Positions 44,958-47,491 of a DNA stretch of 64,000 nt are shown in pieces. How positions within the stretch are numbered: the first letter of the stretch is position 1; each line of letters begins with the position of its first letter. Both the position numbers and the translations under genes were made by a program. The notes below the pieces were generated by a model. That model was given only the letters and a program-made list of their open reading frames with translations. It was not told the DNA's origin and made no database searches. The DNA lies in contig NZ_JBAUYR010000057.1 of the NCBI RefSeq assembly GCF_049584895.1, positions 27,908 through 91,907 of the forward strand, read 5' to 3'. This DNA is from Candidatus Binatus sp. (GTDB taxonomy: Bacteria; Desulfobacterota; Binatia; Binatales; Binataceae).

Positions 44958-45506
44958 ATGAGCGGCGCATCCAATGTCGCTCTCGACGCCGCGCAGGTTG
45001 GACGCTCAGTCAAGCGGATCGCGATGGAAATCGCCGAACGCAACGGCGGCGCCGACAATGTCGTGCTCGTAGGAATCGTTCGGCGCGGCGCGACGCTTGC
45101 CGAGCGTATCGCCGACGAGCTTCGCTCCAACGGCAAGCGCCAGGTCCCGGTCGGTACGCTGGACATCTCGTCCTACCGCGACGACGGCAAGGGCGCGCCC
45201 GGCGACCCGCGCTTAATCGGCCGCGACATTCCGTTCTCGCTCGACGCCAAGCGCGTCGTGCTCGTGGACGACGTCCTCTACACCGGGCGAACGGTGCGCG
45301 CCGCACTCGACGCCATTTCTGACCTGGGCCGCGCGGAGTCGGTTCAACTCGCAGTGCTGGTCGATCGCGGAGAGCGCGAGCTGCCGATTCGCGCCGACTA
45401 CGTCGGCAAAAACATCCAGGCCCCACGCGGCCAGCGGGTGTATGTGCGGCTCACTGAAATAGACGGCGCGGACGCAGTGGTGATTGGCAACGCCAATGGA
45501 AAATGA
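44958..45506 (+). CDS. pyrR: bifunctional pyrimidine operon regulator / uracil phosphoribosyltransferase
   Basis: VVLVGIVRRGATLAERIADEL, LDISSYRDD, VVLVDDVLYTGRTVRAALDA and LAVLVDRGERELPIRADYVGKNI. Confidence 0.92.
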   Translation: MSGASNVALDAAQVGRSVKRIAMEIAERNGGADNVVLVGIVRRGATLAERIADELRSNGKRQVPVGTLDISSYRDDGKGAPGDPRLIGRDIPFSLDAKRVVLVDDVLYTGRTVRAALDAISDLGRAESVQLAVLVDRGERELPIRADYVGKNIQAPRGQRVYVRLTEIDGADAVVIGNANGK

Positions 45507-47491
45507 GGTCGAACGCGCGCACTCAATACGCGACGAACACTAAAGTGTCACGGCTGGCAAAATTTGATGTCGTTTCGATCGAGGATCTCGAGACCTCGGA
45601 CATAGAACGCATATTCGCGCTCGCCGACGGTTTTGCCGAGCAGCTAGAGCGCGGCGAACAGATCACGACCGCTGCCGGTCTGATCATGGCGACGCTGTTT
45701 TACGAGCCCTCGACACGCACGCGGCTCAGTTTCGAATCGTCGATGCATCGCCTCGGCGGCGCTGTGATCAGCTCGGCCGATATGCAGGCGAGCTCCGCTG
45801 CCAAGGGCGAGAGCTTGGCAGATACCGTGCGCGTCGTCGCCGGCTATGCGGACCTGATCGTGCTGCGCCATCCGCATGACGGTGCGGCGCGCGTCGCCGC
45901 CGAGTACGCGCCATGTCCGGTGCTGAACGCCGGCGACGGCAGTCGCGAGCATCCGACGCAGACGCTGTGCGATCTCTACATCCTGCGCAAAAAGAAGGGC
46001 CACCTGAAGGGGCTCACGGTCGCGCTATGCGGGGATCTGAAATTCGGCCGCACCGTTCATTCGCTGATCTATGCGCTCGCGCGTTTCGGCGCGAATATCG
46101 TCGCCGTGCCGACCAGTGGCATGGACGTTCCCGACTATGTCCTCGAGCGGCTCGCCGCCGAGCGCAACTATAGCTTCTCGACCGTCACGATGGATGAGCT
46201 GAAGTCGCTGGCGGGCGGCCTCGACGCGCTTTATCTGACGCCGAGCGCACCGCATCAGATGGCGCTCTTCACGGGCGATGCTGCGCTTCAAAAATTTCCG
46301 ACGGGTGAGCCTCCCGCCGCGCTCGACGCCTTTTACGTCACGCGTTTGCAAAAGGAGCGCATGTCGGGGAAGGAGGCCGGCGCCGCCGACTATGTCCGCT
46401 TCGACGCGCGCGCGCTTCGCACCAGCAAGACGCACGAAGCTGTCGTGATGCATCCGCTGCCGCGCACCAGCGAGCTCGCGTACGAGCTCGACGCCGATCC
46501 GCGCGCGGTTTATTTCGAGCAGGCAGCAGCCGGGGTGCCCGTAAGGATGGCGCTAATCGCTTGGCTGATGGAAAAAGCCGCCGTCGCATCCGCATCTACG
46601 CGGCCAGCAGCCCAGCCGATTCGCTTCAAGGCTGAAGCGCCGCCGCGATGCTCCAATCTGAATTGCATCACGCGATTCGAGGGCGCCCACCTGGCTCCAC
46701 GATTTACGCTCGGGCGCAGCAGTGATAGCAACGTGTTCGCGCTCAAGTGCGGCTTCTGCGAGCGCGAGCTGAAAACCGAGTACGTCGGCCACGCGCGGTC
46801 GCATCGCTACTATCGCTTCGACGAAAACCTGCAAGGCTACGTCCAGCAATGGATCGAAGAAGGCTCTCTCGCCGTATTCGACAGCGTAAAGCAGGCCGAG
46901 GAAGGCGGCTACGAGCCTTACAAGCGCGGGCCTCAGCGCGAGATCATGAATGAAGATGAAGTCGTTCGCGCGATTGAGTCGCTCGCCGACCAGGTGATTG
47001 CCGATATCGTCGACATGCCGGCAGTGTCGATTGTGGGCGTGGTCAGTCGCGGTGCGATGCTCGCGCTTCGGCTGCGCGAGCTGATCGGATCGAAAACGAA
47101 AGTTTTTCCACCGTGCGCCGCGCTCGACGCGTACAAACCAGACGACGCGTTGCATCCGATTGATGGCGCCGACAATTTCGTCGTCGAAGACCGCACGATC
47201 ATCCTGGTCGACGACGTGATTAACAGCGGATGGACCGTGCAGCGCGCGATGGCGACGATCTGGCAACGCGGGCGTCCCGGCGCGGTAAAGCTGGCAGTGT
47301 TGATCGATCGCGGACATCGCGCGGTGCCGATTCGGCCGAACTATGTCGGCAAGAATATCCCGACCTCGCGCACCGAGCGGGTACAAGTGCGCCTCGCTAC
47401 AGGCGGCAGGGATCCGAAAGTAAAAGCGCACGATCACGTCACGATTTATTCAATCGTCGAACCGATGAAAGAACCCGAGGCGGCGCATTGA
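45503..47491 (+). CDS. pyrB: aspartate carbamoyltransferase catalytic chain fused to a PyrI zinc domain and a PyrR-like phosphoribosyltransferase domain
   Basis: aa 20-356 carry STRTR, [16 protein letters not shown] and HPLPR. aa 372-428 read CSNLNC...[10 protein letters not shown]. aa 481-640 read [23 protein letters not shown] and [23 protein letters not shown]. There is an ATGA overlap with pyrR and a TTGA overlap with pyrC. Confidence 0.9.
   Translation: [662 protein letters not shown]

Follow-up and report, generated by a model that had tools for sequence, protein, structure and literature searches.

We analyzed a 64,000-nucleotide stretch (the window) of contig NZ_JBAUYR010000057.1 from Candidatus Binatus sp., in which a pyrimidine (pyr) operon contains a gene for a fused aspartate transcarbamoylase (ATCase). 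Positions 45503-47491 of the plus strand form one stop-free frame of 662 codons. The encoded chain runs from an ATCase catalytic chain through a first linker to a PyrI-type four-cysteine zinc domain, then to a module of 46 amino acids (aa), and finally to a PyrR-type phosphoribosyltransferase (PRT) domain (Table 1). An earlier, sequence-only reading of this DNA had assigned the catalytic, zinc and PRT domains, and profile hidden Markov model searches of Pfam and NCBIfam agree with all three assignments. Two further features were overlooked in that reading, namely the aspartate domain's insertion of about 40 aa (aa 233-272) and the strongly conserved 46-aa module (aa 433-478). On balance, we lean toward the view that this protein represents a fourth type of bacterial ATCase, in which a zinc-tethered, PyrR-derived ligand-binding domain would replace the PyrI sensor and probably bridges catalytic trimers. 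Such a protein would be a regulated ATCase whose parts are familiar but newly combined, kept throughout a candidate phylum and not yet described.

The translation start of the fusion gene is ambiguous. The ATG at 45503 overlaps the stop codon of the upstream pyrR and yields 662 aa. A GTG at 45545 yields 648 aa, to which the 648-aa RefSeq homologue WP_425157461.1 corresponds. Residues 1-21 are weakly conserved (identity 0.33).

Table 1. Features of the pyr operon and of the fusion protein in the window (nucleotide positions are those of the window; aa, amino acids of the 662-aa chain; dN/dS, ratio of nonsynonymous to synonymous substitution rates; pLDDT, predicted local distance difference test)
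Feature	Position	Strand	Basis
Sigma-70-like promoter (TTGACG, 17 nucleotides, TAAATT)	44822..44850	+	1 site found vs 0.1 expected
PyrR-binding RNA hairpin, then intrinsic terminator (CCCGGCUG-loop-CAGCCGGG plus U8)	44854..44947	+	Rfam RF00515; terminator call
Leader-peptide open reading frame (ORF), 21-23 aa	44890..44961	+	Sequence reading; start ATG 44890 or ATG 44896
Stand-alone pyrR, 182 aa	44958..45506	+	NF003549, 212 bits (cut-off 138); hallmark residues
Fusion gene, 662 aa	45503..47491	+	ORF reading; ATG overlaps pyrR stop (ATGA)
ATCase catalytic chain, aa 22-358	45566..46576	+	TIGR00670; nearest structures; invariant active site
Family-specific insertion of ~40 aa, aspartate domain, aa 233-272	46199..46318	+	PDB alignment breaks; invariant residues
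Linker 1, aa 359-378	46577..46636	+	Mean pairwise identity 0.20; dN/dS 0.38
PyrI-type zinc domain, aa 379-432	46637..46798	+	Pfam PyrI_C; PDB profile; Foldseek; invariant residues
Conserved module (linker 2), aa 433-478, 46 aa	46799..46936	+	Identity 0.61; dN/dS 0.09; pLDDT 76-86
PyrR-derived type I PRT domain, aa 479-640	46937..47422	+	Pfam, NCBIfam and PDB PyrR matches
pyrC (dihydroorotase)	47488..48846	+	Pfam Amidohydro_1, DHOase; TTG start overlaps fusion stop (TTGA)
carA and carB (carbamoyl-phosphate synthetase small and large chains), end of pyr operon	48854..53290	+	ORF translations

Pfam divides the chain into four matches: OTCace_N (PF02729, aa 22-162, 150 bits), OTCace (PF00185, 68 bits in two stretches), PyrI_C (aa 382-426, 28.0 bits, cut-off 23.4) and Pribosyltran (aa 480-617, 40.6 bits, cut-off 26.3). 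The allosteric domain of PyrI (PF01948) gave no Pfam match at E<=1 anywhere in the 662 aa, and the only residues that lie N-terminal to the zinc domain beyond the catalytic chain are a weakly conserved tether of 20 aa. The absence of this domain, claimed earlier from the letters alone, is thus upheld. Judged by family models, the protein contains an ATCase catalytic chain, a PyrI_C domain and a type I PRT fold; it does not qualify as a full PyrI, as a Thermotoga-type PyrB-PyrI fusion or as PyrR proper. Against the model for the Thermotoga-type fusion (NF009916), it scores 82.3 bits where the cut-off is 800.

The catalytic part scores 291.1 bits against the NCBIfam model asp_carb_tr (TIGR00670, cut-off 236.95) and 272.4 bits against NF002032 (cut-off 263). 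Its nearest solved structures are those of P. abyssi (1ml4) and M. jannaschii (2rgw), with E. coli next; all three are ATCases that partner PyrI. In Foldseek, an AlphaFold2 (AF2) model matches PDB 1ml4 with a template-modelling (TM) score of 0.87 and a root-mean-square deviation (rmsd) of 2.7 A. When the chain was checked against the reference residues of E. coli ATCase (S52-T55, K84, R105, H134, Q137, R167, R229, Q231 and L267), all active-site residues were present (STRTR 70-74, K101, R122, H150, Q153, R183, R281, Q283 and HPLPR 317-321), and they are invariant in 40 diverse members of the family. Across the same 40 members, D126 (equivalent to E. coli Glu109c) and Y297 (Tyr240c) are invariant and K180 (Lys164c) is nearly so. 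Lys164c and Tyr240c matter for the transition of E. coli ATCase between its T and R states.

Every alignment of the catalytic chain to solved ATCases breaks at the aspartate-domain insertion, which is absent from all of them. Within it, D241, Y244, P247, Q252 and L255 are invariant in the 40 members, and part of the segment looks like a duplicate of the strand that follows (LDALYLT and LDAFYVT). AF2 leaves the insertion unplaced (pLDDT <40). Despite this poor model, it is under selection (dN/dS 0.19), and it may form an interface with the new domains.

Linker 1, which follows the catalytic chain, is probably a flexible tether. The zinc domain to which it leads contains the four cysteines that the sequence-only reading had picked out (383, 388, 416 and 419), and all four are invariant in the 40 members. 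The Pfam model PyrI_C (PF02748) scores higher with the zinc segment alone (31.7 bits) than with the whole protein, and recognizes the domain in 29/29 members of the family. In the PDB, a profile built from the family's zinc segments matched only PyrI chains (E ~1e-5, over E. coli r107-150). Foldseek with the full-length model retrieved ATCase catalytic chains and nothing for the extension; because that search was uninformative on this point, the zinc domain and connector were modelled as a separate segment. The separate AF2 model had a pLDDT of 77.7, and the top 18 Foldseek matches to the segment were PyrI chains, at an rmsd of 1.8-2.0 A over 43 columns.

The zinc domain also retains the residues of the regulatory chain that face the catalytic chain. 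N385, N387 and E393, which correspond to E. coli Asn111r, Asn113r and Glu119r, are invariant in the family. In the E. coli enzyme, Asn111r hydrogen-bonds Glu109c across the catalytic-regulatory interface, and the N111A substitution abolishes both homotropic and heterotropic effects (PMC6056424). Both partners of this pair are invariant in the fusion family, as N385 and D126. Judging by these residues, the zinc domain would sit against the catalytic chain in the canonical catalytic-regulatory interface.

The connector between the zinc and PRT domains carries the motif W..LAVFDS.KQAEE.GYEPYK.GPQR and is predicted by AF2 to fold as beta-alpha-beta-alpha. Its identity and dN/dS show a constraint equal to that of the catalytic core. 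Searches with aa 433-478 found no family in Pfam and, with Foldseek, no fold match in the PDB. The connector may be a new small domain.

The best NCBIfam match of the C-terminal domain is the PyrR model NF003549 (129.1 bits, aa 478-639), just under the cut-off of 138; the remaining NCBIfam PyrR models score far below their own cut-offs. PDB PyrR chains are matched at E ~1e-26, and AF2 models the domain with a pLDDT of 85-93. A type I PRT loop pattern lies at aa 566-578, with the phosphate loop at aa 569-578. D570, D571, V572, G576 and T578, which form the ribose-5-phosphate loop, are invariant in the 40 members, and the DRGHR..P segment is invariant or nearly so; both elements are conserved even among relatives only 31-42% identical. 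Given the retained phosphate-binding loop, the fused PRT domain likely binds uridine or guanosine nucleotides or phosphoribosyl pyrophosphate (PRPP). The domain had earlier been called clearly paralogous to the PyrR encoded immediately upstream. The two are homologous, but at 39% identity the fused domain is a distant homologue of its neighbor and not a recent copy.

To set the fused domain beside PyrR residue by residue, we compared 61 fused PRT domains with 51 stand-alone partners and 3 reference PyrRs, using B. subtilis numbering. Among the stand-alone proteins, R15, R19, E23 and E26 are present in 51/51 and R27 in 46/51; they also retain R42 and Y72-R73-D74-D75 (both 51/51) and the TGRT motif. 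R19 is missing from every fused domain, where position 18 is mostly Glu (30/55 in Binataceae), position 27 is mostly Asp, and position 22 is Asp or neutral in Binataceae and basic (R/K) in most deep-branch members. Accompanying these substitutions is a change in charge: the N-helix (positions 10-30) has a net charge of about -4.5 in fused domains (range -7 to -2, n=61) vs +1.7 in stand-alone proteins (n=51). The C-terminal segment is more basic in the fused form (+3.8 vs +1.2), and equivalents of R141, R146 and K152 are retained. At the pyrophosphate (PPi)-loop position R42, fused domains vary (R/H/K/E/Q). The YRDD motif is gone and the flexible loop shortened in Binataceae; deep-branch members keep TGRT and, in part, YRDD or FRDD.

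These comparisons bear on whether the protein is bifunctional, its PRT domain being an active uracil phosphoribosyltransferase (UPRTase) that joins salvage to the first committed step of de novo synthesis. UPRTase activity is known for PyrR proteins, as the NCBIfam family name records, and the TGRT and partial YRDD/FRDD motifs of deep-branch members would suit such an enzyme. But R42 and Y72-R73-D74-D75, found in 100% of the 51 stand-alone PyrRs, are variable or lost in the fused family: the arginine varies, and Binataceae lack YRDD and have a shortened loop. The Pfam UPRTase model reaches 12.5 bits, against a cut-off of 27, and no catalytic reason is evident for a fusion made through a zinc docking domain. 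We consider a bifunctional enzyme rather unlikely, and the UPRTase option raised in the sequence-only reading is weakened by the variation or loss of residues that stand-alone PyrRs keep without exception.

The stand-alone PyrR of Binataceae has departures of its own. Its C-terminal segment reads DRGERELP and NIQAPR, vs the canonical DRGHRELP and NIPTSR, which the fused domain keeps. Each of the two PyrR paralogues seems to preserve its own half of the features that their ancestor had. Labor in the operon is cleanly divided between them, one acting on RNA and the other being attached to the enzyme.

More than 240 protein clusters have this architecture, and those with a name are labelled Candidatus Binatus, Binataceae or Binatia. 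One set of over 120 clusters lies at 72-96% identity and is named Candidatus Binatus or Binataceae where names exist, and over 100 others are about 60-65% identical to a deep relative designated P0125. Clusters related to P0125 are labelled Candidatus Binatia, 'Deltaproteobacteria' and, once, Methylomirabilota. A genome scan with a four-sequence alignment and one genome per species identified 164 genomes with a relative, and the 80 loci listed of these are nearly all labelled as Binataceae or as metagenome-assembled genomes (MAGs) of 'uncultured delta proteobacterium'. In the NCBI taxonomy, Binatus belongs to the candidate phylum Binatota. The fusion is carried by Binatota that live in soil and are uncultured; the lineage Binatia (Binatota) is represented by metagenomes alone.

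This breadth is relevant to the simplest objection, that separate pyrB, pyrI-like and pyrR-like genes were merged by sequencing error. Of 86 loci compared, 83 lay clear of contig ends, and 75 of those have the gene in a single frame, in sequences from many assemblers and studies; the uninterrupted frame described from the window alone recurs in them. The other eight (L009, L012, L013, L014, L030, L034, L039 and L086) are frameshifted, which is what a merger of neighboring genes might lead one to expect in relatives. Yet all eight are long-read assemblies (seven MFD MAGs and one ENA contig), and their frameshifts, 1-4 per gene, fall at scattered positions, none at a domain boundary. This points to residual indel errors in these assemblies, through which the gene falls into spurious pieces, among them P0161, P0134 and P0136. 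The sequence-only reading had named a split ORF in related genomes as grounds for giving up the fusion; once these errors are set aside, no such split was seen in the loci compared. Moreover, the full-length relatives P0125, P0277, P0132 and P0151 share the single-chain layout at 31-45% identity. No stand-alone protein of zinc and PRT domains was found among 1.84 billion cluster representatives, the short matches there being fragments or garbled copies. We give the idea of an artefact almost no credence.

Several candidates for a divided or more widely spread system were also set aside. P0129, P0152 and P0217 might have been a separate zinc-PRT chain; they start within the last catalytic helix ('MALLKFL...'), come from contigs of about 1 kb and are fragments. 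P0161, encoded at L086, resembled a split version of the protein. Its cluster mates are 643 aa long, and in this long-read contig a frameshift error breaks the gene within the PRT domain. P0125, labelled 'Candidatus Acidoferrales', was not counted as evidence of a second phylum, given that a protein 83% identical to it is labelled 'Candidatus Binatia'.

Every accessory part of the protein is under purifying selection. The dN/dS ratio is 0.24 in the zinc domain, 0.09 in linker 2 and 0.22 in the PRT domain, vs 0.07-0.12 in the catalytic core.

The genes around the fusion lie in the order leader peptide, pyrR, fusion gene, pyrC, carAB. A stand-alone pyrR is directly upstream of the fusion in 77/77 loci that have room for it. 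The product in the window retains R15, R19, E23, E26, R27, YRDD and TGRT, and by these hallmarks it is the canonical RNA-binding attenuator protein. Start and stop codons overlap in a chain, from leader to pyrR (ATGA, 44958), from pyrR to the fusion (ATGA, 45503) and from the fusion to pyrC (TTGA, 47488), which suggests translational coupling across the 5' part of the operon. The gene downstream of the fusion, in 78 loci, is pyrC in 75 and carA in three deep-branch loci. In the latter (L081, L082 and L086) the operon has no pyrC and carA directly follows the fusion, vs Binataceae, where pyrC lies in between. The carAB homologues of L081 carry Pfam CPSase and GATase domains.

The leader upstream of pyrR has the parts of an attenuator. 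A promoter arrangement of the form TTGAC...TAAAT recurs in related leaders. No Rfam family matched within the window at the gathering threshold. The PyrR-binding element RF00515 matches over its full length in the leader at 38.5 bits (gathering score 54, E=4e-4), and homologous sites lie upstream of pyrR in the deep relatives L081 (51 bits) and L082 (47 bits). We accept it as a PyrR-binding site on account of where it lies, of the full-length match and the terminator, and of how it is conserved and covaries across loci; compensatory changes distinguish the binding stems of different lineages, and a T-run is present in 76/77 leaders. Since these elements fall below the gathering threshold (38.5-51 bits vs 54), standard annotation would miss the attenuator. 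A leader-peptide ORF begins right after the AAGG of the hairpin, crosses the terminator and ends with a stop codon that overlaps the ATG of pyrR. Such an ORF is found in 75/77 related leaders, and 52 end with the ATGA overlap. The arrangement is similar to the leader-peptide-coupled PyrR attenuation of Thermus thermophilus. Given the overlap of leader peptide and pyrR, the likely start of pyrR is the ATG at 44958, not the TTG at 44928.

Could the fused domain itself act on this leader? It might bind pyr leader RNA or heterodimerize with free PyrR, and so couple the enzyme physically to attenuation. In keeping with such a role, the equivalents of R141, R146 and K152 are kept, the C-terminal segment is more basic, and a free PyrR is always co-encoded and translationally coupled to the fusion; PyrRs are obligate dimers. 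The loss of R19 from every fused domain speaks against it, as does the helix of T18, H22 and R27, which is strongly acidic in 61/61. In many bacteria, pyrR followed by pyrB is the ancestral order, so co-occurrence alone is no argument for interaction. Control at the RNA level is, in addition, already covered, because the operon has a canonical PyrR and its own leader-peptide-coupled attenuator. We regard a function directed at RNA or PyrR as quite improbable; the RNA-binding alternative put forward from sequence alone loses ground to the missing R19, the acidic N-helix, and the canonical PyrR and attenuator found upstream in 77/77 loci.

The mechanism that we favor can be outlined as follows. 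The catalytic part would assemble into trimers as an ordinary class B (E. coli/archaeal-type) ATCase chain. From it, a flexible tether some 20 residues long would lead to the zinc domain, docked at the canonical catalytic-regulatory interface, and the conserved 46-aa connector would come next. The PRT domain would have lost RNA binding and is probably no enzyme, but may still bind a ligand that contains ribose-5-phosphate. The likeliest ligands would be uridine and/or guanosine nucleotides or PRPP, and (p)ppGpp is also conceivable, as PRT folds elsewhere bind it too. PyrR domains dimerize, so pairs of PRT domains could bridge two trimers in a topology matching c6r6, the arrangement of six catalytic and six regulatory chains. 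In this way, PRT pairs would act like the PyrI dimers of E. coli and produce a homohexamer with ligand-responsive activity. Control at the level of transcription would be left to the separate canonical PyrR and the leader-peptide-coupled attenuator.

A more specific form of this proposal, which we hold tentatively and with somewhat less confidence, is that the protein defines a fourth structural class, a homohexamer of catalytic-zinc-connector-PRT chains that responds to UMP/UTP vs GMP/GTP, to PRPP or possibly to (p)ppGpp, not to CTP/ATP. If so, the connector (aa 433-478) and the insertion (aa 233-272) would be new elements of signal transmission or of an interface. In a bolder variant, the fused domain might also pair with free PyrR and thereby tie the state of the enzyme to attenuation of the operon. 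The sequence-only reading had proposed that a PyrR module replaces the PyrI sensor by way of the zinc domain. The anatomy of the chain, the kept docking residues, the phosphate loop and the pattern of selection all support this replacement; the function it assigned to the module is, like docking, dimer bridging, ligand identity and the sign of regulation, a matter of inference.

Alternatively, the extension of zinc and PRT domains may serve as a scaffold only, which holds two catalytic trimers together and senses no ligand. Class A ATCases use a degenerate enzyme domain purely for assembly (PMC4581275), and in Binataceae the phosphate loop shows R->W and R->Q substitutions, with the flexible-loop motif gone. 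A scaffold leaves unexplained, however, why the DDV..G.T loop is invariant and why it and the DRGHR..P..VGK segment are kept at 31-42% identity, in a domain with a dN/dS of 0.22. We judge this alternative unlikely and return to the proposal of a ligand-responsive PRT domain.

Several observations weigh against that proposal. In 55/55 Binataceae, the loop reads SGWT for TGRT, with W577 (window 47231-47233) at a position where PyrRs universally have Arg, and aa 580 is Gln instead of the conserved Arg (R115). Such changes could alter or weaken ligand binding. Deeper branches of the fusion family retain Arg at the first of these loop positions, and the SGWT motif, confined to Binataceae, may mark a shift of ligand specificity within the family. 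The order of domains is also reversed, the PyrI sensor being N-terminal to its zinc domain and the sensor of the fusion C-terminal, so the geometry of signal transmission is not simply transferable from E. coli. The full-length AF2 model has moderate global confidence (predicted TM score 0.62). In a neighbor-joining tree, fused PRT domains formed a single clade in 0/50 bootstraps; the shared connector and insertion are, in our view, better evidence for one origin of the fusion than this tree. The roles given here to the PPi loop and flexible loop are those general to type I PRTs, and PyrR residues T18, H22, R27, R141 and R146 are reported to take part in RNA binding (Savacool & Switzer 2002).

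A review of the transcarbamylase family from 2015 recognizes three organizations of prokaryotic ATCase, which are dihydroorotase (DHOase)-linked, PyrI-linked (separate or fused) and a bare trimer (PMC4581275). Full-text literature searches found no description of a PyrB-zinc-PyrR architecture; within the literature searched, the suspicion that this arrangement was undescribed holds. The closest known system is the class B holoenzyme PyrB6-PyrI6 (E. coli 1d09, P. abyssi, M. jannaschii), which has the same catalytic subtype, the same four-Cys zinc fold, and the conserved Asn-x-Asn and Glu, including the Asn111r-Glu109c pair seen in the fusion as N385/D126. Unlike class B, the fusion has no PyrI allosteric domain, and its zinc domain is tethered covalently to the C-terminus of the catalytic chain. 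It also has a C-terminal PRT domain as putative sensor, the 46-aa connector and the aspartate-domain insertion of about 40 aa. The Thermotoga maritima PyrB-PyrI ATCase is one chain and allosteric (Chen et al. 1998, cited in PMC4581275). It likewise places catalytic and regulatory parts in one chain, but keeps the whole of PyrI and has no PRT domain.

Other comparisons concern the partner domain. In class A ATCase (Pseudomonas PyrB with inactive PyrC') and in the ATCase-DHOase dodecamer of Aquifex, a dimeric partner that descends from another protein of the pyrimidine pathway bridges the catalytic trimers (PMC4581275). There, the partner is a separate protein of DHOase fold without a zinc docking domain, whereas in the fusion the bridge would be a PRT domain. 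PyrR itself (B. subtilis 1a3c, B. caldolyticus 1non, M. tuberculosis 1w30/5iao) shares fold, family, phosphate loop and a further segment of 21 aa with the fused domain. Unlike PyrR, the fused domain is not a stand-alone protein, falls below all NCBIfam PyrR cut-offs, has lost R19 and has an acidic N-helix; its PPi-loop Arg and YRDD are not conserved, and a genuine PyrR is encoded alongside it. In B. subtilis PurR, a type I PRT fold serves as a sensor of PRPP, nucleotides and (p)ppGpp and controls a DNA-binding domain. Unlike in PurR-type regulators, the fused PRT domain would control an enzyme and not a DNA-binding domain.

ATCase is the classic model of allostery, and work on its regulatory logic has dealt almost exclusively with PyrI. 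If our reading is correct, the Binatota provide a phylum-wide natural variant in which the zinc adaptor was kept and combined with an unrelated sensor fold in the opposite domain order. This would amount to an evolutionary experiment on the modularity of allosteric transmission, one that would tell the essential parts of the catalytic-regulatory interface from the dispensable ones. It would also be a further case of a PRT fold recruited as a ligand sensor, here for an enzyme and not for a transcription factor.

Databases currently name the protein 'aspartate carbamoyltransferase catalytic subunit' or 'phosphoribosyltransferase family protein'. The present finding corrects this annotation and provides a sequence marker for Binatia (Binatota). 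The labels of three loci, L008, L035 and L081, are doubtful. L008, a 1.6-kb contig binned as 'Trinickia sp.', shares 91% identity with the Binatus gene across the segment that matches. L035, labelled 'Candidatus Acidiferrales', is 79% identical over its matched segment, and the label of L081, the locus of P0125, reads 'Candidatus Acidoferrales'. Sequences closely related to these bear the label Binatia.

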